Shown: positions 7,200-64,000, counted from the stretch's first letter. The stretch: 64,000 bases of DNA from Candidatus Aenigmatarchaeota archaeon (GCA_038998335.1 JAVZHQ010000002.1:64001-128000), one strand, 5' to 3'. The notes: generated by a model from the sequence alone, not told the origin. Program-made: numbers and translations.

Positions 7200-7223
7200 T
7201 AAATGTGCATGTAAGTATACAAG
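7200..7223. promoter_or_regulatory. Palindromic operator-like motif, copy 2 (TGCAT-N6-ATACA)
   Basis: TAAATGTGCATGTAAGTATACAAG in the divergent gap between the HTH regulator and tRNA-Ile. Confidence 0.55.
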
Positions 7224-7316
7224 GGCCTATAGCTCAGCCTGGTTAGAGCAATCGCCTTATATGGCTCGCTTTCGTGAGAAAGCGATAGGTCGAGGGTTCA
7301 AATCCCTCTAGGCCCA
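7223..7316 (+). tRNA. tRNA-Ile(UAU) with 19-nt intron at 37/38 (7262-7280)
   Basis: Cloverleaf: acceptor GGGCCTA/TAGGCCC, anticodon stem ATCGC/GCGAT, loop CT-TAT-A|A, T-arm GAGGG-TTCAAAT-CCCTC; central helix CTTA/TGAG and 3-nt bulge AA|A. Confidence 0.88.
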
Positions 7317-51407: not shown

Positions 51408-53600
51408 ATGGCAAAGAAAGAGATGATTGAAAGGATCAAAGAAGCGATGAAAGATCCAGCAAGAATAAGAAATGTTGCAACAAGCTCTCATGTACATCAT
51501 GGGAAAACTGCTTTAACTGATAACTTGATGGCTGGAGCAGGAATGTTAGCAGAAGAAATGGCAGGAAAAGTAATGTACACTTGGTTTGATGAACAAGAGA
51601 GAAGAAGACAACTAACAATTTATGGAGCAAACGTTTCCATGGTTCATGAGTATGAAGGTAAAGATTATTTAATTAACTTAGTCGATACTCCTGGTCATGT
51701 GGATTTTGGTGGTGATGTTACTAGAGCAATGCGTGCTGTTGACGGCACAATAGTTCTTGTATGCGCAGTTGAGGGAATAATGCCGCAAACAGAAACAGTT
51801 TTCAGACAAGCTTTGAGAGAATACGTTAAGCCAGTTTTATTCATTAACAAGACCGACAGGCTGATAAAAGAGTTAAAATTATCACCAGAAGACATGCAAA
51901 AAAGGTTTGAAGAAATTATTCGTGATGTTAATATTCTGATTCAAAAGTATGCCCCTGAAGAGTTTAAGAATAAATGGTTAGTAAGCGTTGCAAATGGTAG
52001 TGTAGCGTTTGGTTCAGCAACTAAAAGATGGGCTATTTCTATCCCATACATGCAAAAAACTGGAATAACTTTTAAGGAGATTATTGAACTCACATTAGCT
52101 GGAAAGGAAGATGAGCTAGCAAAAAAAGCTCCTCTACATCAAGTTGTTTTAGACATGATTATTAAACATTTACCAAATCCTTTAGAAGCTCAGAGGTATA
52201 GGCTATCAAAAATTTGGAAAGGAGATTTAGAATCAGAAATAGGGAAGCAAATGTTAGCATGCGATGCAAACGGAAGACTTGCTGCAATAGTCACAAAAGT
52301 AGTTCCTGACCCACATGTAGGTTTTGTTGCAACAGCAAGAATTTTCTCAGGAAAAGTTTACAAAGGAAAGGACGTTTACTTGATAAACCAGCATAAACAA
52401 GAAAAAATTCAGCAAGTTGCTGTTTACAAAGGAATATTGAGAATTCCTGTTGAAGAAGTTACTGCAGGAAACATCGCTGCAATAGTTGGAATTCCTGAAG
52501 CTTTCACAGGAGAAACTGTTTGTGAACCAGACAATATAATAGAACCTTTTGAAGAAATAAAGCATCTGTTTGAGCCTGTAGTGACAAAAGCTATTGAGCC
52601 AAAAAATCCTATGGAATTACCAAAGCTTGTTGAAGCTTTAAAGAGAATTGGAAAGGAGGATGCTGTTTTGCAAGTGAAAATAAATCAAGAAACAGGAGAA
52701 TACCTTGTTTCTGGCTTAGGTGAACTTCATCTGGAGGCAAAAGTTGAGAATAAGCTTAAAGAAATGGGAATAGAAGTTGAGATGAGTAAGCCTATAGTTG
52801 TTTATAGAGAAACAATTTTTGATAAGTCTCCTACTATTGAAGGAAAAAGCCCAAACAAGCATAATAGATTTTACATAATGGTTGAACCTTTGGAAGAAAA
52901 AATATACCAAGCTATGAAAGAAGGAGAAATTCCAAGCACAGTAGAAGTTAAAACTAAAATGTTAGACTTGTTCAAAAAACTTTCTAACTTAGGAATGGAT
53001 TATGACGAGGCAAAAAGAATAGTTGTAATTTACAATAAAAACATGTTTATCGACTTAACAAAAGGTGTGCAATTTATGAATGAAGTTATAGAAATGGTTA
53101 AAGATGCTTTTAAGGAAGTTATGGATGATGGACCATTAGCAAGAGAACCTTGCACTAAAGTGAAAGTTAAGCTTGTAGATGCTGAGCTTCATGAAGACCC
53201 TGTGCATAGAGGCCCAGGACAAATAATGCCTGCTGTAAGGTATGCTATAAGGCAGGGAATGCTTAAAGCTAACGCTACCTTGCTTGAACCTAAACAAATA
53301 ATAAGGATTGATGTACCTACTGAGCTAATGGGCGAGGCTACAAGAGAAGTTGAGAACAGAAGAGGGCAAATTTTAGACATGAAAGAAGAGAGGGGGGCAA
53401 GCGTTATAATAGCAAAGGTTCCTGTTTCTGACATGTTTGGTTTTGATGCTAGCTTAAAATCTGCAACCTCAGGAAGAGGATTTTATAGCTTGATAGAAAC
53501 AGTTTTTGAAAAATTACCGAATGAACTAAGAGACGAAGTAATAAAAAGCATAAGGAAGAGAAAAGGTCTACCTGAAGAAATTCCTAAACCTGAAGTATAG
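51408..53600 (+). CDS. fusA: Elongation factor 2
   Basis: 'HVHHGKT', DTPGHVDF, NKTD, diphthamide loop 'HEDPVHRGPGQ'. Confidence 0.98.
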   Translation: MAKKEMIERIKEAMKDPARIRNVATSSHVHHGKTALTDNLMAGAGMLAEEMAGKVMYTWFDEQERRRQLTIYGANVSMVHEYEGKDYLINLVDTPGHVDFGGDVTRAMRAVDGTIVLVCAVEGIMPQTETVFRQALREYVKPVLFINKTDRLIKELKLSPEDMQKRFEEIIRDVNILIQKYAPEEFKNKWLVSVANGSVAFGSATKRWAISIPYMQKTGITFKEIIELTLAGKEDELAKKAPLHQVVLDMIIKHLPNPLEAQRYRLSKIWKGDLESEIGKQMLACDANGRLAAIVTKVVPDPHVGFVATARIFSGKVYKGKDVYLINQHKQEKIQQVAVYKGILRIPVEEVTAGNIAAIVGIPEAFTGETVCEPDNIIEPFEEIKHLFEPVVTKAIEPKNPMELPKLVEALKRIGKEDAVLQVKINQETGEYLVSGLGELHLEAKVENKLKEMGIEVEMSKPIVVYRETIFDKSPTIEGKSPNKHNRFYIMVEPLEEKIYQAMKEGEIPSTVEVKTKMLDLFKKLSNLGMDYDEAKRIVVIYNKNMFIDLTKGVQFMNEVIEMVKDAFKEVMDDGPLAREPCTKVKVKLVDAELHEDPVHRGPGQIMPAVRYAIRQGMLKANATLLEPKQIIRIDVPTELMGEATREVENRRGQILDMKEERGASVIIAKVPVSDMFGFDASLKSATSGRGFYSLIETVFEKLPNELRDEVIKSIRKRKGLPEEIPKPEV

Positions 53601-53685
53601 TATTCGCTGATTTCGTCTGTTAAAGTGAAAAAGTTTAAATATATTTAAATACTCAATTTAAATTTAAGTTAGTGGGGGTGAATTG

Positions 53686-54963
53686 ATGCCTGCAAAACCA
53701 CACATAAACATAATGACTGCAGGACATGTTGATGCTGGTAAATCAACTCTTATAGGAAGATTACTATACGAAACTGGAGCCATAAGAGATGAAGAATTAA
53801 GAAAGTTAAAGGAATTGGCTACTCAACTTAAGAAAGAAACTTTCGAATATGCTTTTGTTATGGACAAGCTTAAAGAGGAAAGAGAAAGAGGTTTAACAAT
53901 AGATATAATGCATCGCCCTTTTGAAACACAAAAATGGTTTTTCACTATAATCGACTGTCCTGGTCATAGAGATTTTGTTAAAAATATGATAACTGGAGCA
54001 AGCCAAGCAGATGCTGCCATTTTTGTTATTTCAGCAAAGGAAGGAGAAGGTGTGCAAGAACAAACAAAAGAGCATGCTTGGCTCATGAAAGTTCTTGGAA
54101 TTAAACAAATTATTGTTGTTTTGAACAAAATGGATACGGTAAACTATGACGAAAAAAGGTTTAACGAAGTAAAAGAGGAAGCAATAAAGTTGCTTAAAAC
54201 TATTGGTTACAAAGTTGAAGAAATTCCTTTCATTCCAATTTCAGCTTACCATGGAGATAATGTTACTAAGAAATCTGATAAAACGCCTTGGTATAAAGGT
54301 CCTACCTTAGTTGAAGCCTTAGACACTTACATAAAAGAGCCAGAAAAACCTGTTGGAAAGCCATTAAGAATTCCAATCCAAGATGTTTACAGCATAACAG
54401 GAGTTGGTACTGTTCCAGTAGGGAGGGTTGAAACAGGAGTTTTAAAAGTTGGCGACACTCTAGTTTTTGAACCACCAGGAGTAAAAGGTGAAGTTAAATC
54501 TATAGAAATTCACCATCAACCAATTCAAGAAGCTAAACCAGGAGATAATGTTGGGTTTAATGTAAGAGGAGTGAGCAAAACCGATATAAAGAGAGGGGAT
54601 GTAGCAGGCCATCCTGACAACCCTCCAACTGTAGCAAAAGAGTTTACTGCACAAATTGTTGTTTTGCAACATCCAACAGTAATTAGTGCTGGTTATACTC
54701 CAGTTTTTCACTGTCATACTGCTTCAGTAGCTTGTACTATTACTGAAATAATTGCAAAGATTGACCCAAGAACAGGTGCAGTAATTCAGGAAAAACCTGA
54801 TTTCATAAAAACTGGAGATGCAGCAAAGATTAGAGTTGTTCCTACCAAACCAATGGTTATTGAGAAGCAATCTGACTTTCCTGAGTTGGCAAGGTTTGCT
54901 ATTCGTGACATGGGAATTACAGTAGCTGCTGGAGTTTGCTTGGATGTAGTAAAGGCCAAGTAG
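53686..54963 (+). CDS. tuf: Elongation factor 1-alpha; last codons supplied by the integrated element
   Basis: [29 protein letters not shown], 'RFAIRDMG'. Confidence 0.98.
54944..54963 (+). repeat. attL direct repeat (replacement tuf 3' end)
   Basis: ATGTAGTAAAGGCCAAGTAG, 17/20 identical to 62202-62221; encodes VVKAK-stop. Confidence 0.9.
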
Positions 54964-54980
54964 TTATTTAGTATTATTTC
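54960..54980 (+). repeat. Left 21-bp inverted repeat of the element
   Basis: GTAGTTATTTAGTATTATTTC is the exact reverse complement of 62172-62192. Confidence 0.95.
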
Positions 54981-55049
54981 CCTGGCTCTTTTTTATTATT
55001 TTATTAGGCTGAGGCTTTATAAAGCTTGTGGTTAATTCTATTAATTGAT

Positions 55050-55421
55050 ATGGTTACATCTAAAAAAATACTAGAGATTAAAATAAAAAGAGATTGGTAT
55101 GATTATGTTATGCTAATCTTGGTGGGGATTGGTACCTTTAGCGCATTATTTGGCGTGACTATACAAGTTCCAAAAATACAAGGCGCATTAGAAAATATTA
55201 GCAAATCATATAATGCAAGTTTAAGTGAAAGATTATCAATCAAAGAAACTTTTACGACATGTGTCACGCATGCAAAAACACCACACATAACAGAATGCTA
55301 TACATGCAATGAATACCCCATAGAACAAATTAATGCAATTCTGCGTGTGTGCAATATAGAAATAACAGACTCTCTTACTAATACAACAAACAAAACACAA
55401 AAACTCGAATTAATAAAATAG
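55050..55421 (+). CDS. Element-encoded membrane-anchored hypothetical protein
   Basis: One TM near the N-terminus, four Cys in the soluble part. Confidence 0.6.
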   Translation: MVTSKKILEIKIKRDWYDYVMLILVGIGTFSALFGVTIQVPKIQGALENISKSYNASLSERLSIKETFTTCVTHAKTPHITECYTCNEYPIEQINAILRVCNIEITDSLTNTTNKTQKLELIK

Positions 55422-55505
55422 AAAAAATGTTTAAATTTCCATATTTTTTATTTCTCCTTTCCTTTATTATAAAATTATTTTTTTTCAGTCTTTTGGTTGA
55501 AGAAT

Positions 55506-55739
55506 CTAATACATTGAGCTTTGTTGAGTTGCTAAATATATGAAAACAACAACTACAATAAAAACTACAACTATACAAATAAATAGAAATATATTACCCG
55601 TAGATATGAAGAAATCACCGGTTCCGGGTAAAATAGCATTCATTGTCCTACCCAAAACATTGCCAAAATAAGCCAATAAACCTAACGCTAATATTATTGA
55701 ACCCATTATTCCTAGCACCACCCATATATTTATTTCCAT
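55506..55739 (-). CDS. Element-encoded small two-TM protein
   Basis: 77 aa, two hydrophobic helices. Confidence 0.6.
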   Translation of the reverse strand: MEINIWVVLGIMGSIILALGLLAYFGNVLGRTMNAILPGTGDFFISTGNIFLFICIVVVFIVVVVFIYLATQQSSMY

Positions 55740-55793
55740 ATCTCATGAGATGAAATCAAAAATATTTATTTTTATTCTTTGTTAATTGAATTA

Positions 55794-56210
55794 TTAACAC
55801 TTACCAATAGTAGTAGTAATAGTATATCCTCTTTCAATCATCTTGCTGACTAACTCTTCTAAACTTACCCACTTCCTTTTCTTATTGCCTACCAAAAGAT
55901 AGCACACGCACTCAACGATGTCTCTTGCTACACTATTATCTCTACTACTATTACTATCTACTATTACATTTGGCCCCATTATCTCTACTACTTTATCCAG
56001 CGCAAACTGAGGATTTCTCATGTAGCTTCTAAGAAAAGGTAAGGTTAATCTTATACCGGCTTCTGTCACTACTAAAACATTATTAAGGTATAACTCGTTT
56101 ACTATTTCTTCTATTTGTTGTAAACTTATTGAAATACTCATCGAATCACCGCATTGCTTAATAATCGCATCCTTAGAACGATGCCGTGAGAGGCTCTTCT
56201 TTCGCACCAA
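55794..56210 (-). CDS. Element-encoded hypothetical protein
   Basis: 138 aa ORF (true start may be MSISIS at 56141). Confidence 0.55.
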   Translation of the reverse strand: MVRKKSLSRHRSKDAIIKQCGDSMSISISLQQIEEIVNELYLNNVLVVTEAGIRLTLPFLRSYMRNPQFALDKVVEIMGPNVIVDSNSSRDNSVARDIVECVCYLLVGNKKRKWVSLEELVSKMIERGYTITTTIGKC

Positions 56211-56407
56211 CCGTTTTTAACCCATAATGAAAGAATTTGTCTACCTATTCTCCAACAAATCTTTCTGTGACTAAACCAGAATCTTATATAGCTATAATTT
56301 ATCACTTTGTTGGGTGTTGTGTAGAAAGCGGGCAACTCCTCTAAAAATTTCTCAAACAAATATTTGGCATATTTGTTCTCCATATGATTATTAACCATTA
56401 GAATCAC
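56138..56407 (-). CDS. Element-encoded small basic hypothetical protein
   Basis: 89 aa ORF in the same leftward run. Confidence 0.5.
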   Translation of the reverse strand: MILMVNNHMENKYAKYLFEKFLEELPAFYTTPNKVINYSYIRFWFSHRKICWRIGRQILSLWVKNGWCERRASHGIVLRMRLLSNAVIR

Positions 56408-56482
56408 CCCGATTTCCAGATGAAGGTGATTCCTTCCACCATTTTCTTAGGACCTTAACATATTCTGGCAGGTTGTCTTCAT

Positions 56483-56617
56483 TCATTTTCTCTCACCTTT
56501 TCGCAATTCTTTCTCAAGAAGAACTCTTATAAAACCTGAAAAAGTTGAACCTCGTTTGTAGGCTTTCTTTTTTGCTTTTTCCTTCAAACTTTTCGGTATT
56601 GAAATTGTAGCCCTCAT
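56483..56617 (-). CDS. Ribbon-helix-helix (CopG-like) protein, 44 aa; absent from ORF track
   Basis: Manual translation MRATISIPKSLKEKAKKKAYKRGSTFSGFIRVLLEKELRKGERK fits the RHH pattern. Confidence 0.8.
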   Translation of the reverse strand: MRATISIPKSLKEKAKKKAYKRGSTFSGFIRVLLEKELRKGERK

Positions 56618-56722
56618 GGCGCAAATTTAAGTAATCTAATGTTAAATTCGGGTAGGTATCAAAAAATGATACTACTTATCTCAACAATTATTTAAAAATA
56701 GTTACGCCGAAATTATTTTTAG

Positions 56723-57088
56723 ATGTTTAAAAAGTTTAAAATAAAAATATTAGAGTTGCTCGTAAAAAATTCTGTAAACTCTTTTGAAAAAGCAATTAGA
56801 ATGGATGTTTATGAAGAAAGGTTAATGAAAGAGATTGGAATTGAAAATAAAACTTACTTCTATAAGATATTGTACGAAATGGAGAGAGGAAAGGCTATAA
56901 CAAGAGTCGCTCACGGCCCAACGAACCGTGTTTATGTTTATATGACACCGAGTCAATACGAGCGGGTTAAAAAACTACTTCCTATTCTGAATGATTTAGA
57001 ACTTGTTTTAGGTCTTATTTTAGTTTCGAATAAAGACATTAATAGGATTGTGGATACACTATTGCAAAAAATTTACGAAAAGTCTTGA
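56723..57088 (+). CDS. Winged-helix (MarR-like) DNA-binding protein
   Basis: 'KTYFYKILYEMERGKAITRV...NRVYVYMT'; divergent from the RHH gene. Confidence 0.65.
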   Translation: MFKKFKIKILELLVKNSVNSFEKAIRMDVYEERLMKEIGIENKTYFYKILYEMERGKAITRVAHGPTNRVYVYMTPSQYERVKKLLPILNDLELVLGLILVSNKDINRIVDTLLQKIYEKS

Positions 57089-57283
57089 AATTCTGCAAAA
57101 GTGCTTTATTTTAAGTAGATATAATTTTTAAAGTAAGAATAAGAAATTTTTGAATCTTTTAACAAATCTTTAAGAGTAAATCTTTCTAAAATACCAAGTT
57201 TATCCAAATCTTTGACTTTTTCGAGAAATTCTTTAGATTTTGAGATAAATAGTATATAAAAATTTCATACCATAAATTAAATT

Positions 57284-57511
57284 ATGAGAGGCGAGCTCAT
57301 GGAATTAAGTTGTCCATTCTGTGACAGGGGGAAAATAGAAGTCTGGTATATTCCAAGCTATATTAAAATTAGAAGAATATCTGGCTCATTTGGTAAGGGT
57401 CACGCCTTTTCTAAAAGTGCTGATATTTGGATAGTAAAATCAGGTTGTCCTGTTTGTGGTAAATCACCAAATGAAGTAGAAAGAGAATTAAAACGAAAGA
57501 GAATAATTTAG
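57284..57511 (+). CDS. Small zinc-finger protein
   Basis: CPFC and CPVCG; likely start MELSC at 57299. Confidence 0.75.
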   Translation: MRGELMELSCPFCDRGKIEVWYIPSYIKIRRISGSFGKGHAFSKSADIWIVKSGCPVCGKSPNEVERELKRKRII

Positions 57512-57521
57512 GTTATAAATT

Positions 57522-58187
57522 ATGTCAGAAATTGACAAACAATCTAAAATAATTTTAAAAAATGGAGAAATTTTATGTTCTTTACCAATTACTGCTCATA
57601 CAAGTAAAATCAGAGTAAAGAGAAATGGAGAACCTTTAGCCACGCGTCAAAAAAATCTTCTTGATAGTGACTTGATAGAATGGCAAATTTCTTACTATAA
57701 ACCAAATACAAACAAAGAACTTTTTGAAATTGGGTTGATGTTAAAAATTGCTTATGAAAATGGAATTATTTCTAGAGAAGAATTAAAAAATATTAAGGAA
57801 TATGTCAAGAAAGTTGATAAAACTTTCTTTGAGAGTTATTCTTTTAGAGTTGAGAAGTTAGAAGAAAATTTTTATGATTTTATGGTGATGTTGAGAGAAT
57901 TTCCCTTTCTTCGTAAATTTTTTAGCGATGGTTGCTCTTTAGAAATAGAAATAAAACACAAGCAAAAAGCTGTCGGGTTTCAACCTATGCTTTATATTTT
58001 TATTCCTTTAAAAAATGTAGTTTCAGAAAATGAGAATAATTTAATCGGAAGAAAAGCAAGGCCAAAAGAAAGAGTGATTTGGAAACCTAATAAAATACAT
58101 ATAATTGAAACAATTAAGGCATTTGCTATAGCTTCTAAGACTCATCTGAATGATATCAAAGAAATTCTTAACAGGATTGAATCCTAA
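57522..58187 (+). CDS. R.PabI-family (HALFPIPE) restriction enzyme / restriction DNA glycosylase
   Basis: Motifs 'LPIT...KIRVKR', 'IEWQISY', 'KHKQKAVGFQPMLYIFIP' match my recollection of the PabI family; convergent with methyltransferases. Confidence 0.75.
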   Translation: MSEIDKQSKIILKNGEILCSLPITAHTSKIRVKRNGEPLATRQKNLLDSDLIEWQISYYKPNTNKELFEIGLMLKIAYENGIISREELKNIKEYVKKVDKTFFESYSFRVEKLEENFYDFMVMLREFPFLRKFFSDGCSLEIEIKHKQKAVGFQPMLYIFIPLKNVVSENENNLIGRKARPKERVIWKPNKIHIIETIKAFAIASKTHLNDIKEILNRIES

Positions 58188-59310
58188 ACTCTAAAATATC
58201 ACTTTTTTTAATTGATTTGCTACCAACCCTAAAAGTTAGGTTTTTGAAATGTTCTTGATTTTCATTTAGTATTCTGCATATTTTTTCCTTAAGTTCTTTA
58301 TCTTTGTCATATTTTTCTTTAAACTTAAACACATAAAACATGTCATTCAAAACATCTTTCTTTATGTTTATTAATCCAGCCCTACCGACACTTGTATTAC
58401 CAACTCTAACGATAGCTAGATAATAATCTGAGACATTTTCACCTACAGGGATTTCAATTTTTTCTGTTATGTTTGAACCAGAAACATTATTATTCGTGTA
58501 GGATTTTTTATAATAAACTTTTTCATTTGATAAAAACTCATATAATGGAATTCCCTTAAGGCATACATTTTTCTTGTATAAGAATGATTTTGGTATAAGC
58601 TCTTCAGTTAATAGATTGGACTTATCTAATATTTCCTCGACCTTCCTACCCTCTTCATAAATAAGAATTATTTTATCTTTAAACTTTTCAACATTAGTAA
58701 ATATGGCAAAACAGCATGGTATGGGCTCATCGACCCATTTTTTATTGTTTTGATACACTATAATGGTAGAAAATCTATTTAGAATTTCTCTTTTAACTTC
58801 CAAATTTTTTCCTTTTATAAAAAAGGAAATTGGTAGAACAAAACCAATAGTCGAATTTTCATCTTTTAAATGTTTAATAGACTTAAGAATAAAGACATTC
58901 TCTATTTGTATTTTCTCTTTTTTAACCAATTTTTTTGTTAGGTATTCTTTGGGGTGAATAGGACTATTAAAATATTTTTTTGGAAAGTAGTAGCTTTCCT
59001 TTATGTTATATTTCGTGAAAGGCGGGTTACCTATAATTAGGTCAAATTTTTTATCTAAAGGGTAAAGGAAAAAGTCACAAGGTTGCTTTGTGAATTGTGG
59101 GTCAATCTCACAACCTTCTATGTTATTAAATCCTTTCTTTTTAAGAATTTTTATAAAATTACCTGTTCCAAAGGAGGGCTCTAAAATCTGAATTTTTTTA
59201 TCATATTTTTTAAATTTCAGAATTAAATCTATAACTTTTTTTACTATTTCCTTTCTTGTAAAATATTGACCTAAAATGAATTTTTTATTTATTTTCAAAT
59301 TTATCACCAT
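58168..59310 (-). CDS. N6-adenine DNA methyltransferase, gamma class
   Basis: 'GQYFT', motif I 'LEPSFGTG' before motif IV 'GNPPF'. Confidence 0.9.
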   Translation of the reverse strand: MVINLKINKKFILGQYFTRKEIVKKVIDLILKFKKYDKKIQILEPSFGTGNFIKILKKKGFNNIEGCEIDPQFTKQPCDFFLYPLDKKFDLIIGNPPFTKYNIKESYYFPKKYFNSPIHPKEYLTKKLVKKEKIQIENVFILKSIKHLKDENSTIGFVLPISFFIKGKNLEVKREILNRFSTIIVYQNNKKWVDEPIPCCFAIFTNVEKFKDKIILIYEEGRKVEEILDKSNLLTEELIPKSFLYKKNVCLKGIPLYEFLSNEKVYYKKSYTNNNVSGSNITEKIEIPVGENVSDYYLAIVRVGNTSVGRAGLINIKKDVLNDMFYVFKFKEKYDKDKELKEKICRILNENQEHFKNLTFRVGSKSIKKSDILEFRIQSC

Positions 59311-59951
59311 ATATTAGCCAATCTTTTATTGGCAAGTTTAACATACTTTGGATTAATTTCAAATCCTATAAAATTTCGATTGAGTTGTTTACAGGCGATA
59401 GCTGTGCTTCCACTTCCAATAAAAGGGTCTAAGATTAAATCATTTTCTTTGGTGAACATTATCAGTATATCTCGAATAAAATGCTTGGGTTTAGGTGTAG
59501 GGTGGTCTATATAGCCTTCATCAGGTTCGATCATCTTTGTTCCAGCTATATGCTCAAATAAATCTTTATTAGGTTGAATAATTTTCGGGTTTCCTTTCTT
59601 GAAAATGAAGCAAGACATATATTTTGTAATTCCTATTGGAGATTTAACATTTGCTTTTGGAGAATAAAAAATTATTTGCCAAAAGTAGACAAATGGGTTG
59701 TTTATAAATAGTTTTGGTAGAAATTTTGTGCTAAAAAATGTAATGAAGAAACTATTATTTTTTAAAACCCTATAACATTCGGGTAAAATTTTATAGAATG
59801 TGGTTAAATCCTCGTCGTTACGAATTCCCTCTTTTTTCAAGCCGTAAGGTGGGTCTGTGATAATTGCATCTATGGTTTCATCCGGTATCTCTTTAATTAA
59901 TTTTAAAGCATCGCCCAATACTATTTTGTTAATAAATTTGTCGATTGTCAT
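59304..59951 (-). CDS. N4-cytosine/N6-adenine DNA methyltransferase, beta class
   Basis: 'TDPPY', 'HPTPKP', 'LDPFIGSGST'. Confidence 0.92.
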   Translation of the reverse strand: MTIDKFINKIVLGDALKLIKEIPDETIDAIITDPPYGLKKEGIRNDEDLTTFYKILPECYRVLKNNSFFITFFSTKFLPKLFINNPFVYFWQIIFYSPKANVKSPIGITKYMSCFIFKKGNPKIIQPNKDLFEHIAGTKMIEPDEGYIDHPTPKPKHFIRDILIMFTKENDLILDPFIGSGSTAIACKQLNRNFIGFEINPKYVKLANKRLANIW

Positions 59952-60104
59952 TATTCACACCATTTAAACTATGTTATTATCTTTTGATATCCATTTTTTT
60001 CTCAGTTAGCATTATAGTAATATATAACACTACCTATATTTAAAATTTAATAACCCTAACACTAAGGTTATAGATTTATATACTACTAAACACTTAAAGA
60101 ATAT

Positions 60105-60239
60105 ATGGCCAAACGAATTTCTACAAGTATAAAAATAGACCCGGAAATCCTTAAACAAGCAAAACATTATGCAATTGATGAGGGTATTACTTTTTCTGAA
60201 TTGGTAGAAAGAGCATTAAAAAATGAAATAAAAAAATAA
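60105..60239 (+). CDS. Ribbon-helix-helix protein, 44 aa; absent from ORF track
   Basis: Manual translation MAKRISTSIKIDPEILKQAKHYAIDEGITFSELVERALKNEIKK; divergent from the methyltransferases. Confidence 0.8.
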   Translation: MAKRISTSIKIDPEILKQAKHYAIDEGITFSELVERALKNEIKK

Positions 60240-60393
60240 ATTATCCGAAAAAATAGTTCGATTCTTATTTGAATTTTAATATTATCCAAACATTCAAAGA
60301 TGTTCCAAAAGATTTGAGTAGAGAAGCTAAAATCGTTATTGGAACTGCATGGGTTTTATGGAATGAAATACCATATGAGTTTACGATTTGATT

Positions 60394-60969
60394 TTAATTT
60401 TTTTCTAAACTCCTTCTTTTCATCTCTTCTTCCTTCTTTTTCATATAAGCTTCATAAATTATGTCAAATTTTTCCAAAATAGCTGATTGATGGGGTTTTT
60501 CGATTTTTTGAATAATTGTAGGAGATTGGTACATTTCTCCTAAAACTTTCATTAAATGAATTTTTACAAGTAAAAGCCTGTCTATATTCTTATCCAACCT
60601 TCCTCCATCCTTTACTTCATACCACTTAGCCACTTCAAGTCTTCTATCTATATCTTCAAGCTCATTCCACATTAAATTTATTAATTGCTCCACATTTCTT
60701 GTGTTATATTTTTTGATTATAATTTTTTTGAAAGCACAAATCGCTCCTGTCTGATAAAAGCTACACCTATCTCTTATATAGCAACTATCACAATCAATTA
60801 TTTTAAATCTTCTCGCTCTCATCCCATGCTTAAATGCTGCCAAATTTCCTTTTACAAACCTTCCTGTTTTAGGGTCTCTGTCAATCTGCTTTACAACTGT
60901 TTCTCTGCTATCCTTAATTTTATTTTCACCGTTTGTGTTTTCTTGACCAACGGTGACCATAAACATCAC
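60394..60969 (-). CDS. Terminase small subunit-like protein with Cys cluster
   Basis: 'RDPKTGRFVKGNLAAFKHG' resembles the GN..A.KHG motif of viral TerS; CxxC-x4-C-x8-C; helical C-terminus. Confidence 0.55.
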   Translation of the reverse strand: MMFMVTVGQENTNGENKIKDSRETVVKQIDRDPKTGRFVKGNLAAFKHGMRARRFKIIDCDSCYIRDRCSFYQTGAICAFKKIIIKKYNTRNVEQLINLMWNELEDIDRRLEVAKWYEVKDGGRLDKNIDRLLLVKIHLMKVLGEMYQSPTIIQKIEKPHQSAILEKFDIIYEAYMKKKEEEMKRRSLEKN

Positions 60970-62132
60970 TCCTCAAACAAATATTCCAAACCTCTCTCCT
61001 TGACCATTTGCCTAAAAACCTCTTTTACACTTTCGTCCCTATTTGCCAACACCAAAAGAAAATCTTTAACAAAATCATCAAAATCTTTCCTCACCTTTTC
61101 AGCTTCCAAAATCATTTTAATATCCAAAGGAGAGCCACACCTTTTACAAAAACTAAAAGATGATGGGTTGACTTCACCACATTTAAAACATTTCTTAACT
61201 TCCTTGTTCATAACTTCTAAGAGCTTTTCATCTATCTCCTTTCCTGATAAATGATAATAAACAGAAGCCATCTTGCTATCTTTAGTCCAACCGAATATTT
61301 CCTTCATCACAGCTTCTGGTAAATGTTTTGCTAAATGAGTAGCTCTTGCGTGTCTGAAAGCATGAGGATTCACTCTTTTTTTAATTCCAACTTTCTCAGC
61401 CAACTTTTTTAAAATAGATTCAACTTGCACATAGGTTATTAATCCTCGTTTGTTTTTGCCCAAAGATATCCACACATAAGCTTCTGGGTCGTTTCTTAAA
61501 GGATGTACATCTAACCAATTTTCTAATTCCTTAACATACTCTATTATTCTCACTCTTCTCATTCCAGTTTTTCCGTCAACTATTAACACACAGCCATGCT
61601 CATCAAAAATTATATTTTTAATTTTTAGGGAAAGCAACTCTCCTACTCTGCAACCCGATTCATAAAGTACGAGAACTAGGGCTTTATCTCTAAGATTGTT
61701 TGCTACTTTAGCCATCCTTTCTATTTCTTCTTTAGTCAAAATCTCTTCTGGTAAGAACTTGTTTTTCAACTTATGATTTAACTTAATCCATTCTACTTCT
61801 TCAGGATAAGTATTTGAGTTTCTCAACCATTTATAAAACCTCTTTAGCTCGCATTTAATCGCAGTTTTAGATTTCTCACTTCCGTACCTATTCTCTACTT
61901 CACTAACAACAGCTATGATATCCTCTTTTGTAGCTTCTGTAAATGGTTTGTTGAGAATTTTTGCTATCGTGGACAAAGCCCAAAGAACATTCCTCAAAGT
62001 AGCTTTTCTGAAGCCGTTTGCATTAAGAAGATTGAAGAACTTGAAGATAAGCTGTTTGTTCTCTTCGCATATAGAAGAGTTTTTAATTCTCTCAATATCT
62101 TTTTCCAAGCTTCTGGCAGTATTTAAGCTCAT
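60966..62132 (-). CDS. Tyrosine recombinase/integrase with C-terminal double zinc ribbon
   Basis: Catalytic set R (SGCRVGE), K (GKTG), HxxR (HAFRH), W (FGW), Y (SVYYH); CxxC...CxxC tail. Confidence 0.95.
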   Translation of the reverse strand: MSLNTARSLEKDIERIKNSSICEENKQLIFKFFNLLNANGFRKATLRNVLWALSTIAKILNKPFTEATKEDIIAVVSEVENRYGSEKSKTAIKCELKRFYKWLRNSNTYPEEVEWIKLNHKLKNKFLPEEILTKEEIERMAKVANNLRDKALVLVLYESGCRVGELLSLKIKNIIFDEHGCVLIVDGKTGMRRVRIIEYVKELENWLDVHPLRNDPEAYVWISLGKNKRGLITYVQVESILKKLAEKVGIKKRVNPHAFRHARATHLAKHLPEAVMKEIFGWTKDSKMASVYYHLSGKEIDEKLLEVMNKEVKKCFKCGEVNPSSFSFCKRCGSPLDIKMILEAEKVRKDFDDFVKDFLLVLANRDESVKEVFRQMVKERGLEYLFEE

Positions 62133-62171
62133 AATTTTGCCTACCTTCTTTTTAGCCTAAATATGCCAGAA

Positions 62172-62192
62172 GAAATAATACTAAATAACTAC
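62172..62192 (-). repeat. Right 21-bp inverted repeat of the element
   Basis: GAAATAATACTAAATAACTAC, exact reverse complement of 54960-54980. Confidence 0.95.
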
Positions 62193-62201
62193 CATAGCTT
62201 T

Positions 62202-62221
62202 ATGTAGTTAAGGCAAAGTAA
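62202..62221 (+). repeat. attR direct repeat (displaced original tuf 3' end)
   Basis: ATGTAGTTAAGGCAAAGTAA reads GTA GTT AAG GCA AAG TAA = VVKAK-stop. Confidence 0.9.
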
Positions 62222-62240
62222 TTCTTTTATTTTTTCTTTG
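62222..62240 (+). terminator. T-rich putative terminator of the pre-insertion tuf gene
   Basis: TTCTTTTATTTTTTCTTTG directly after the displaced stop codon. Confidence 0.5.
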
Positions 62241-62284
62241 TTGTTTATAATAAAAATTAGTAAAATTAAGATTTTCTCAAAAAA

Positions 62285-62461
62285 TTATTTCTGCTTGCTT
62301 GCAAAATAAGCTACCCCAATTCCTAGAAGTGCAAAAGCAAAAGCTATTACACCCAAAACCCAAGCTTGCTCTTTTGCGAATATCAAGAAGAAAAAAACTA
62401 TTGGTATAAATATACCTGCAAGAGCAGGAGCAATTCCAGTTATATCATGTTCTTTTTTCAT
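62285..62461 (-). CDS. Small two-TM protein, 58 aa; absent from ORF track
   Basis: Manual translation MKKEHDITGIAPALAGIFIPIVFFFLIFAKEQAWVLGVIAFAFALLGIGVAYFASKQK; outside the element. Confidence 0.7.
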   Translation of the reverse strand: MKKEHDITGIAPALAGIFIPIVFFFLIFAKEQAWVLGVIAFAFALLGIGVAYFASKQK

Positions 62462-62629
62462 ACTTAATGCTTGTTTTACAAGCTTATAAGCATTGTTTAA
62501 CTATCAAAAGTTCAAAACAAACTTGTAAGAATTAATCAAGATTCCCTAAAATATTTAAATAAGCTTTACAAATCAAAATTCTAGAAAAGTTTAAATAATT
62601 TAACTCAATAACACAAGAGAAGTGGTATT

Positions 62630-63763
62630 ATGAAAATTGATTTAGAAAACATAGCAAAAGAAGTTTTTAAGAAAAAACCTTTGGTAATAAAAAAAATAGA
62701 CAAAAATCTAATTAAAGTTTTCTATAAAGGTAAAAGTCCAAGAAACACACCAAAACCAATAATTCTTCCAAAAATAATAAATTTGGATGAAGAAATTATT
62801 GAGAATGTTGGAATGTACATTGGTGATGGAACTCTCTCACCAACCAGAAAACATCAAATAGAATTTACTACTATAGATGTAGACATGGCAAAAAAATTCC
62901 TCGATTTTTTAACGAAAAGATGGTGTGTTAAAATACAAAATATAACCTTTATTTTAAAGTACAACAAAGGAAACAAAAAAACAATAAAAGAAAAATGGAA
63001 AAAATATCTAAATGTCCCAAGTGAAAAACTTCTAGTTAAAAAAGAAACTAAATATAATGCTCGAGATTCTCTGACAATTATTGTTAACAGCTTGATTTTT
63101 ACTCAAGTATTCAAAAAATTTATTAAAAAATCACTACCATTAATTAAACTAAATTCTAAATTAATAAAAGCATTTCTAAGAGGAGAATTTGCAGCTGATG
63201 GAAAATTTATAGTAGAAAAAGATACCAATACCTACTATATCTCTGAAATAACCTTCTGTTATAACTATCCTAAAGAGTTATGGTTACGGAATTACTTAGT
63301 CGAATGCCTAACGAAAGAAGGAATAACAAAAATCAATGAAAACCGAAAAGGCTTTATTAGAATTACCGGCTGGAATAATTATTTTAAATTATGGAAGATG
63401 GGAATTTTTAACTGTTGTAAGAGAAAAAAAGAAAAATTTCTATCAACGATTAAACAATCAAAAATTCATCTTATGGTAGATGTTGAAACAATTAAACAAA
63501 TTATAAATTCTTCGAGTCTGACCAAAAAGGCCATAGCAAATAAAGTTGGTATAAATAGATCAAATCTTTTTAGAGTTCTAAATGGTAAACAACTTATGAC
63601 AATTGAACAATTTAATGCACTTACTCAATTAATTGATAATCATTTAAATACTTATCAAAATCAAATAAGTAAAATTAGGATTGGTAAACTTACTTATTTG
63701 CCATTTTCCCGAGAATTTATAAATTTTGTTGCAAAAGAAAAATTGATAAAAGGTGATAGGTAA
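62630..63763 (+). CDS. Free-standing double-motif LAGLIDADG endonuclease with C-terminal HTH
   Basis: Motifs 'ENVGMYIGDG' and 'AFLRGEFAADG'; XRE-like HTH 'LTKKAIANKVGINRSNLFRVLNGK'. Confidence 0.85.
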   Translation: MKIDLENIAKEVFKKKPLVIKKIDKNLIKVFYKGKSPRNTPKPIILPKIINLDEEIIENVGMYIGDGTLSPTRKHQIEFTTIDVDMAKKFLDFLTKRWCVKIQNITFILKYNKGNKKTIKEKWKKYLNVPSEKLLVKKETKYNARDSLTIIVNSLIFTQVFKKFIKKSLPLIKLNSKLIKAFLRGEFAADGKFIVEKDTNTYYISEITFCYNYPKELWLRNYLVECLTKEGITKINENRKGFIRITGWNNYFKLWKMGIFNCCKRKKEKFLSTIKQSKIHLMVDVETIKQIINSSSLTKKAIANKVGINRSNLFRVLNGKQLMTIEQFNALTQLIDNHLNTYQNQISKIRIGKLTYLPFSREFINFVAKEKLIKGDR

Positions 63764-64000
63764 ATGCAAATAGCAAGAATAAAACTTTTAGGAAGAGACC
63801 CAAAAGAATTGGATAGCATTTGCAATGAAATAAAGGAAATAGCAAAAAAATTAGGTGTAGATTATAGAGGACCGATTCCCTTACCAACAAAAAAATTGAA
63901 AGTAGTAACTATGAAAACTCCTTGTGGCGACGGGACACTAAACTAGACATCTAGTTTAGCCCGAAAGGCCATGGAAATGCTACTTTTGATAGATGGGAGA
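63764..64000 (+). CDS. rpsJ: 30S ribosomal protein uS10, interrupted by a putative intron; runs off the window end
   Basis: 'MQIARIKL...[10 protein letters not shown]...TPCGDGT'; after removing 63937-63965 the frame continues [11 protein letters not shown]. Confidence 0.93.
63937..63965 (+). other. Putative 29-nt BHB/BHL-type mRNA intron in rpsJ
   Basis: CGGG[AC|A]CTAAACTAG-ACAT-CTAGTTTAG-CCCG[AA|A]; contains an in-frame TAG; excision restores the frame. Confidence 0.85.

Follow-up and report, generated by a model that had tools for sequence, protein, structure and literature searches.

Why should the end of an essential protein gene stand twice in an archaeal genome, once in the gene itself and once again 7258 bp farther on? 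The question is raised by a 64,000-nt stretch of DNA from Candidatus Aenigmatarchaeota archaeon (GCA_038998335.1, JAVZHQ010000002.1:64001-128000), the whole of which is called the window here, where the last codons of tuf, the gene of EF-1alpha, recur close to the gene of a tyrosine integrase. An earlier note, made from the sequence of the window, had read the intervening DNA as an integrative element that targets the 3′ end of tuf. The comparisons presented here lead to the conclusion that this DNA is very probably a site-specific integrative restriction-modification island of ~7.26 kb, lodged in the final tuf codons in the genome of a tiny hot-spring archaeon of the Aenigmatarchaeota (DPANN). 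The parts on which the argument depends are given in window coordinates; G numbers designate genomes, L numbers loci or contigs, and X numbers metagenome runs.

53683-54963, plus strand: tuf (EF-1alpha), an open reading frame (ORF) of 426 aa with the C-terminus VVKAK-stop, the part from 54951 being read as element-borne.
54944-54950, plus strand: left core copy, ATGTAGT (7 nt), in the tuf codons Asp-Val-Val; proposed crossover region in attL, at whose end (54950) an X2 contig exactly terminates.
54951-62208, no strand assigned: integrated element, one repeat unit of 7,258 bp, with a GC content of 30.0%.
54951-55023, plus strand: putative element-borne replacement of the tuf end (P′), comprising the final 4 codons and stop, a T-rich tract and the arm at 54960-54980; in other hosts, homologous sequence forms the native tuf flank.
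54960-54980, plus strand: left 21-nt arm, separated from the core by 9 nt and repeated without mismatch, in inverted orientation, at 62172-62192.
60966-62132, minus strand: tyrosine integrase, XerA-like, 388 aa, Pfam PF00589, with a C-terminal zinc-ribbon-like CxxC...CxxC; the gene is intact when integrated.
62172-62192, minus strand: right 21-nt arm, found beside the integrase here, in L067 (G041) and in L090.
62202-62208, plus strand: right core copy, ATGTAGT, in attR, 9 nt from the right arm; G041 homology stops at 62204, and an X2 contig match begins at 62202.
62209-62240, plus strand: putative displaced native tuf end, with the final 4 codons and stop (to 62221) and its own T-rich tract; it matches the G012 tuf end.

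The final 20 nt of tuf (54944-54963) are found a second time at 62202-62221 with three mismatches (17/20 nt), and a direct look-up and a repeat search both returned these positions, as the earlier note had given them; the repeat search further lengthens the direct repeat to 22/26 nt (54944-54969 and 62202-62227). At three mismatches or fewer, the 20-mer has two occurrences in the 64-kb window against 0.02 expected by chance, and none of 100 shuffles gave two. The mismatches, GTA/GTT, GCC/GCA and TAG/TAA, all lie at third codon positions of the tuf frame, in which both copies encode VVKAK-stop, and T-rich runs directly follow both stop codons; these features had likewise been described correctly. 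The tuf frame reads through the core into 54951-54963 and terminates with VVKAK-stop, while the displaced copy at 62209-62221 codes for identical residues. The arrangement is thus that of gene-end-replacing elements of the e14/icd type, in that the tuf ORF is completed by the element and the old end is kept at the far junction. The probability that three mismatches among 20 positions all fall on the seven third-codon positions is 0.031. It had been proposed from this pattern that the element is selected to preserve the peptide rather than the DNA sequence. The pattern itself stands (3/3 third-position mismatches, p ~0.03), but such selection is plausible only; a synonymous pattern would be expected when two homologous gene ends evolve under the same protein constraint, and would not by itself prove selection on the element.

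A perfect 21-nt inverted repeat (54960-54980 and 62172-62192), which the earlier note had overlooked, lies just within each junction. The two arms are complementary at 21/21 positions, the number of such matches expected by chance is 0.00, and no shuffle out of 100 gave any. The right junction has the order arm, 9 nt, ATGTAGT, and the left junction has the order ATGTAGT, 9 nt, arm; a circular form would therefore carry a 21-9-7-9-21 site with the core at the dyad centre. By inspection, the 4 nt flanking the core on each side are also mutually complementary. This layout is that expected of a tyrosine-recombinase site, and the symmetry of arm-9-core and core-9-arm is an independent pointer to the 7-nt core, and it supports the choice of ATGTAGT made in the earlier note. 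The 21-nt arms are likely to be the binding sites of the integrase.

Two other explanations of the inverted arms were considered and abandoned. An inversion switch operating between them was dropped because the direct repeats, together with the pair of occupied and empty alleles described below, explain the arms as two halves of one attP. A transposon or casposon was rejected for want of a fitting gene and of a duplication abutting the 21-nt arms: no duplication immediately flanks the arms on their outer sides, and the direct repeat is shifted by 9 nt and partly covers one of them. Neither Cas1 nor a transposase family was found in ten ORFs scanned against Pfam, namely nine element ORFs and a LAGLIDADG-like ORF outside the element, with 55506-55739 and 56138-56407 falling outside the scan. 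The window has instead direct att repeats at both junctions with an integrase gene between them, which is the organization of a site-specific integrative element.

The integrase matches Pfam PF00589 with an E value of 8.6e-27 and 94.4 bits (cut-off 27.1) over profile positions 2-169 of 172, which corresponds to the full catalytic domain. Its closest solved structure is that of XerA from P. abyssi (4a8e, E 1.2e-21). In the alignment with 4a8e, the Arg in RV(S/G)EL, the RH of the PH..RH..ATH stretch and the Tyr close to the C-terminus are identical residues; the Arg, H-x-x-R and Tyr of XerA aligned in this way are those we take to be catalytic. The NCBIfam model XerA_Arch (NF040815) scores the integrase at 121.5 bits, under its cut-off of 220, and so does not class it as a XerA equivalog. 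A separate, shorter XerA-like gene (~285-291 aa) is present elsewhere in the same genome (G000, a metagenome bin of 1.0 Mb in 9 contigs) and in relatives, indicating that the element integrase is not the chromosomal resolvase. As in elements with classical (non-suicidal, type II) integrases, the integrase ORF (388 aa) is unsplit, and its start codon is separated from the att core, on the upstream side, by 70 nt, the distance that had been noted before (ORF 60966-62132, minus strand). A protein scan found no relatives of the integrase among viral contigs.

What the tuf end looks like where no element is present can be deduced from related genomes. Orthologues of tuf were found in 41/41 genomes searched, and in 16/29 loci of relatives tuf is followed by the S10 gene within 55-1158 nt, as compared with a gap of 8.8 kb in the window; in the other 13 loci S10 was not found in the DNA examined, which was less than 800 nt for L006, L008, L027, L028 and L030. 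VVKAK-stop ends the tuf gene of 18/29 relatives, and ATGTAGT is present in 11/29 tuf ends. The right copy of the window (62202-62221) is identical at 20/20 positions to the native tuf end of G012, and at 31/34 when the flank is included, as expected of a displaced native end. The left type of tuf end, on the other hand, has its own native counterparts. Its flank is found natively 3′ of tuf in G139, G140, G143 and G144, where the spacers between tuf and S10 are ~125-230 nt long, and a pattern search found the arm type in 9/70 genomes of the family, belonging to 4/27 genera. From these comparisons, the left-type flank is native sequence in several hosts, of which the element carries a homologue behind the core, and the arm beside the integrase is an inverted copy of the native tuf flank; in the window, the host's own tuf end is of the other type and now stands at the right junction, as a crossover in the core requires. 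The element-borne tuf end matches native ends at 61/66 nt in G001, 58/68 in G003 and 57/66 in the L090/G143 host (the end displaced in L090). Of the earlier proposal that the element rebuilds the C-terminus with synonymous codons, the identical VVKAK-stop thus holds, but the replacement is not free re-coding. Its homology to the native tuf ends and flanks of related hosts suggests that it was most likely captured from a former host or is co-evolving with one, as in e14/icd.

An occupied and an empty allele are available for a second host. The metagenome contig L090 encodes an integrase that is 100% identical in amino acid sequence, is 98% identical at the nucleotide level to 60602-62237 of the window, and shares with it the arm, the 9 nt next to the arm, and the core. 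Past the core it continues with a tuf end and a variant of the 21-nt arm, and S10 follows ~125 nt later. The S10 gene of L090 is only 79% identical to that of the window, and its host is ~70-77% identical to the compared relatives (5/6, with no match to the short G005 locus), which places this host in a different genus. Genome G143, which carries no element, is the empty counterpart of L090: from the core up to where the G143 contig ends, the two agree at 341/344 nt, but on the other side of the core the G143 sequence codes for tuf, in place of the element end present in L090. The empty site is therefore found in this second host, and the L090/G143 pair places the insertion at, or just 5′ of, the tuf core.

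Contigs of four hot-spring metagenome runs, that is, assembled contigs and not reads, were compared with positions 53000-64000. Run X1 is the probable source of the window, one of its contigs spanning the stretch with no differences, and is not independent evidence. Its depth is 37-49 in 28/30 bins over the flanks and the element; the two exceptional bins have summed contig depths of 192 (56303-56669) and 175 (62909-63275), which probably arise from short pieces of other, deeper contigs matching there. In X2, a contig that covers 54743-54950 with no differences stops at the final base of the left core, and the match of another contig starts at 62202, the first base of the right core, where 20-25 extra letters do not fit the element. 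These unaligned letters, which were not seen, could come from the tuf side of an unoccupied site, but nothing is claimed for them. For the window's own strain, the support for an empty site is indirect and comes from these X2 contig breaks at 54950 and 62202. The X2 pieces of the flanks have depths of 7.5-11.1, and those of the element 3.5-5.3. A contig from X4 (depth 2.9), a run of another study, connects 62209 with 54952; its shorter side measures 53 nt, and 5 nt fit both sides. A circle junction would be expected to have this form. The X2 and X4 contigs hint at, but do not prove, a mixed population of genomes with and without the element. The earlier note had named the empty site and the circle junction as the joints to look for. 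Among contigs, the empty site is given by G143 in the second host and an end joint by X4, the latter ambiguous, whereas none is listed in X1. Its central claim, an integrase-bearing element in the tuf 3′ end that replaces the native end with an equivalent one, is backed by the L090/G143 pair, the arm-core-arm geometry, and the contig joints and breaks at the cores.

The same contigs bear on the idea that the locus is an assembly artefact, the assembler having joined a free circular element to the chromosome by way of tuf-like sequence common to both. Such an error is conceivable as element and host have sequence in common at both junctions, namely the core and in some hosts also the arm, as the genome was binned from a metagenome, and as the sole contig with the full span comes from X1. 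However, the independent L090 contig joins the same element end to the tuf end and S10 of another host, an identity of only 7-13 nt at the junctions is short for a mis-join, and the X1 depth is even across flanks and element. On this evidence, an assembly error of this kind is extremely unlikely.

With a real insertion, the events at tuf could be as follows. The XerA-like integrase would bind the two 21-nt arms and recombine the site of the circular element with the tuf end, its own gene staying intact. Strand exchange would take place inside the identity block that begins with ATGTAGT, at a position that is deduced and not fixed exactly; the block is 7 nt long between the window copies, and up to 13 nt long if the X4 contig represents the circular site. 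Integration would shift the final 13 nt of the host's tuf, together with the terminator, to the far junction from 62209 onward. The copy carried by the element would be placed behind the core from 54951 onward and would supply VKAK-stop and its own T-rich tract or terminator, by which the essential tuf gene would stay whole. The S10 gene would be served by its own promoter-like stretch at 62540-62627. The element is presumably still active at present.

Several observations weigh against this explanation. The sequence at 54951-55023 follows tuf in G001 and G003 as well, where there is no integrase between tuf and S10, and the 21-nt arm type is natively found 3′ of tuf in genomes of genus g20; on the window alone, the left copy could thus be argued to be native. 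For the left junction, this assembly and X1, its probable source run, are the only sources. No empty-site or circle joint is listed among the X1 contigs, which as contigs drop rare variants, and the X4 joint, a single contig of low depth, could be the right junction in a host with a left-type flank. In G041, a close copy of the integrase is located in an AT-rich intergenic spacer upstream of a PfkB-like kinase gene, and this spacer is uninterrupted in G027 and G097. Lastly, 0/12 more distant integrase homologues (31-57% amino acid identity, from related genomes) are near tuf.

The first of these points could be taken to mean that the left tuf end and its flank, to ~55023, are native and that the element entered ~60 nt downstream by another route, the right copy being a chance or unrelated similarity. 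The congeners G001 (tuf 98% identical in amino acid sequence) and G003 do share the left-type end with a flank of ~60-75 nt, up to window position 55021-55023, and have no integrase at tuf, and the native occurrence of the arm type in g20 points the same way. A native left end would nevertheless leave unexplained the right 20-nt copy, of which 0.02 are expected and which equals the G012 tuf end at 20/20 positions, the 9-7-9 symmetry of arms and core, and the X2 contig breaks exactly at 54950 and 62202. In the L090/G143 pair, moreover, the element end abuts the tuf core and not a site 60 nt downstream. This pair and the native flanks in g20 remove the conflict raised by the left-type flank of G001 and G003, and it seems unnecessary to regard these two genomes as bearing scars of an old integration, once the flank type is native in g20. 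Altogether, we consider a native left end very unlikely, and insertion at the tuf core is retained as the explanation.

The specificity and the mobility of the element can be examined in G041, where the integrase module of the window (60288-62204) recurs at 97.5% nucleotide identity (L067) with an integrase 99% identical in amino acid sequence. The tuf gene of G041, by contrast in identity, is only 73% identical to that of the window at the nucleotide level, ends with VVPLKK and is 45 kb away from the integrase gene, both being on one contig. Homology to the window extends no farther than 62204, a position within the core, on one side and 60288 on the other. The left part of the window (53683-57200) matches only tuf in G041, where the 21-nt arm is present once, and the G041 contig ends within the element. 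A 28-nt word made of arm and core was found in 2/371 genomes of the phylum, namely that of the window and one in which it has the same contig and coordinates as in G041. Because the intergenic site is empty in G027 and G097, site specificity is not absolute; evidently an element deprived of the tuf site can use, or ended up in, another site. In G041 (L067, 11871-14312), the module of integrase and accompanying 191-aa ORF is joined to other cargo, a large restriction-modification gene of the N6-methyltransferase type that is at least 814 aa long and truncated by the contig end, and the homology break at 60288 suggests a modular exchange of defence cargo.

The usual targets of the integrase lineage appear to be different. 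A tRNA gene lies within 170 nt upstream, on the same strand, in 8/12 of the distant homologues and ~670 nt away in one, and none was detected in three. Since 8/12 are located downstream of tRNA genes, tRNA genes would be the usual target, and tuf thus the exception. The expectation in the earlier note that close integrase homologues also sit at tuf is borne out by the 100%-identical copy in L090, but not by the 99% copy in the intergenic spacer of G041, nor by any of the twelve distant ones. Upstream of the integrase homologues in L078 and L085 there are T-arm-like words (GGATTTGAACCC) where neither ARAGORN nor Rfam called a tRNA; they may belong to intron-containing or split tRNA genes or be tRNA fragments that integration has left behind. 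In L085, a 5S rRNA gene is also located ~260 nt upstream. In the window itself, ARAGORN reports a 94-nt 'tRNA-Stop' with the anticodon tta at 7223-7316 (plus strand), which may be a misread intron-containing tRNA.

An element can be real and no longer move, and the locus might then be a fixed, immobile relic, a domesticated restriction-modification island with fossil repeats. The missing empty-site and circle joints of X1 are compatible with it, as are the 3/20 differences between the repeat copies, and no excisionase gene was recognised among the element ORFs in the Pfam and PHROGs scans. On the other hand, the integrase ORF is intact with the XerA-aligned residues present, and the arms are complementary at all 21/21 positions. 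Near-identical integrase modules (97.5-98% nucleotide identity) are present in three hosts of different genera or families, the copy in G041 being 97.5% identical even though tuf is only 73% identical there. In addition, the depth of the element in X2 is below that of the flanks, and X4 has the end-to-end joint. It is thus extremely unlikely that the element is a mere relic.

Beyond a mobile element in tuf, a more far-reaching explanation may be offered tentatively, as one that is possible rather than probable. The 21-nt arm bound by the integrase would also be the sequence that naturally follows the tuf stop codon in several genera of Aenigmatarchaeota, and the element would have built its perfectly symmetric 21-9-7-9-21 site by adding an inverted copy of this host flank. 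Within the family, the tuf end would serve repeatedly as a landing site, for a lineage that switched from tRNA genes to an essential protein gene and moves between families. If this is true, it would answer the question about dyad symmetry at protein-gene att sites raised in a review of archaeal tyrosine recombinases, and would provide a natural site-specific integration system for DPANN archaea. That review lists a few protein-gene att sites, states that recombination there has never been tested, and asks the question of dyad symmetry (PMC8371274).

Integration into a gene 3′ end with a replacement gene end is a known principle and not new here, e14/icd being the textbook case and others having been catalogued in Thaumarchaeota. 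In the passages seen of one source, icd of E. coli is described as running into prophage e14, with a displaced C-terminal fragment, icdC, at the other end, and excision as altering several synonymous sites (PMC13626634, citing Hill et al. 1989). The two systems are alike, as far as these passages go, in that the 3′ end of a central or essential protein gene is hit, the element supplies a replacement end, the displaced end is kept, and the ends differ mostly synonymously (PMC13626634). They differ in that e14 is bacterial, replaces a much longer stretch of icd and has an integrase of another lineage, whereas here 4 codons and a stop of tuf are replaced in a DPANN host. Phage 21 likewise integrates in icd.

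There are archaeal precedents as well. In the passages seen of two papers on Thaumarchaeota, 14/68 integrated elements lie in 3′-distal regions of protein genes, the frame at NitEve-E2 is rebuilt with an element-derived stop codon, and casposons favour the EF-2 gene as a target (PMC6563490, PMC4779613). The element studied here resembles these in its archaeal host and in its location at a protein-gene 3′ end, and the elongation factor gene EF-2 is a recurrent target among them (PMC6563490, PMC4779613). The EF-2 casposons, as described in these passages, differ by their Cas1, terminal inverted repeats and target-site duplication, in contrast to the tyrosine integrase and direct att repeats here. 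EF-1alpha is absent from the target lists in the same passages of PMC6563490 and PMC4779613, supplementary tables being outside this scope. With classical archaeal integrases (type II, pNOB8-like and XerA-related), as treated in the parts of PMC8371274 consulted, the element shares a gene that is intact after integration and an att site just upstream of the integrase. It also shares a XerA-like catalytic domain, and homologues from related genomes lie directly downstream of tRNA genes. It differs in its protein-gene target and in having the intact target at the element end far from the integrase, as opposed to the tRNA gene beside the integrase in the homologues.

No literature naming tuf or EF-1alpha as an att site was found in titles, the beginnings of abstracts and term searches of PMC6563490, PMC4779613 and PMC5126054, a scope without subscription journals and supplementary tables. 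Both tuf as a target and Aenigmatarchaeota as a host group thus appear to be new, such integration being apparently undescribed for either. Also new is the unusually clear anatomy of the site, with two perfect 21-nt arms centred on a 7-nt core and with occupied and empty alleles at strain level. The gene hit is among the most highly expressed and conserved genes. To our knowledge, mobile elements have hardly been described in Aenigmatarchaeota, whose genomes are ~1 Mb in size. The picture obtained is that of a restriction-modification island which appears to move between DPANN families, its cargo being swapped beside a conserved integrase module, and the element could serve as a compact, testable case for protein-gene att sites.

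From its gene content, the element is best described as a small integrative restriction-modification island of ~7.26 kb. Its GC content of 30.0% compares with 36.1% for EF-2 and tuf upstream, 27.3% for the downstream part (62222-64000) and 32.8% for the whole window. Besides the integrase, it contains the following genes, whose functions are predicted from family matches.

55026-55421, plus strand: ORF of 131 aa without a family match.
55506-55739, minus strand: hydrophobic ORF of 77 aa without a family match.
55794-56210, minus strand: ORF of 138 aa without a family match.
56723-57088, plus strand: ORF of 121 aa without a family match.
57284-57511, plus strand: ORF of 75 aa with CxxC pairs and weak matches only.
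57522-58187, plus strand: R.PabI-like restriction endonuclease, 221 aa (Pfam PF09522, E 2.1e-11, 44.4 bits against a cut-off of 25).
58168-59310, minus strand: N6-adenine DNA methyltransferase of the Eco57I/N6_Mtase type, 380 aa (Pfam PF02384, E 1.2e-9; PF07669, E 6.5e-9).
59304-59951, minus strand: N4/N6 DNA methyltransferase, 215 aa (Pfam PF01555, E 1e-32; NCBIfam methyltransferase models below their cut-offs).
60394-60969, minus strand: ORF of 191 aa that accompanies the integrase, without a Pfam match, beside the integrase in all three copies of the module.

The first five ORFs of this list matched no family at its cut-off in the Pfam and PHROGs scans, 55506-55739 being outside the Pfam scan, and a sixth small ORF (56138-56407) was outside the family scans. 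The 191-aa ORF weakly matched part of one PHROGs family, labelled queuine tRNA-ribosyltransferase (E 7.4e-11), but this was not accepted as its function.

Other changes were seen at and behind the tuf end of this group. In locus L101 of G130 (G130:C16), tuf ends with EVVKSK-stop, and ~470 nt farther on a second tuf-end-like copy starts with the core and continues with VVKSK-stop and a variant of the 21-nt arm; the locus itself gave no match to an integrase. This duplication around a 470-nt insert is a second, independent-looking case at the tuf end, and could represent an element that has decayed or been reduced to miniature form, at the same site but in a different genus. The conserved S10 promoter-like stretch at 62540-62627 is common to the window, G001, G003 and G005. 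A 377-aa ORF (62630-63763, plus strand), with a LAGLIDADG-like match just below the cut-off (E 2.2e-4) and a helix-turn-helix, fits exactly between this stretch and the S10 start at 63764. The ORF is absent from G001, G003 and G005 and is skipped by one X4 contig, in which 62616 is joined directly with 63738; it has the appearance of a further insertion, independent of the element, in the spacer between tuf and S10. In G001 (L063, G001:C17 11984-13249), this spacer holds a 421-aa gene on the opposite strand with a weak match to a sulfoquinovose isomerase model of the sugar isomerase family (83 bits against a cut-off of 700). The spacer is thus variable within the genus, and G005 and the window carry other small ORFs there.

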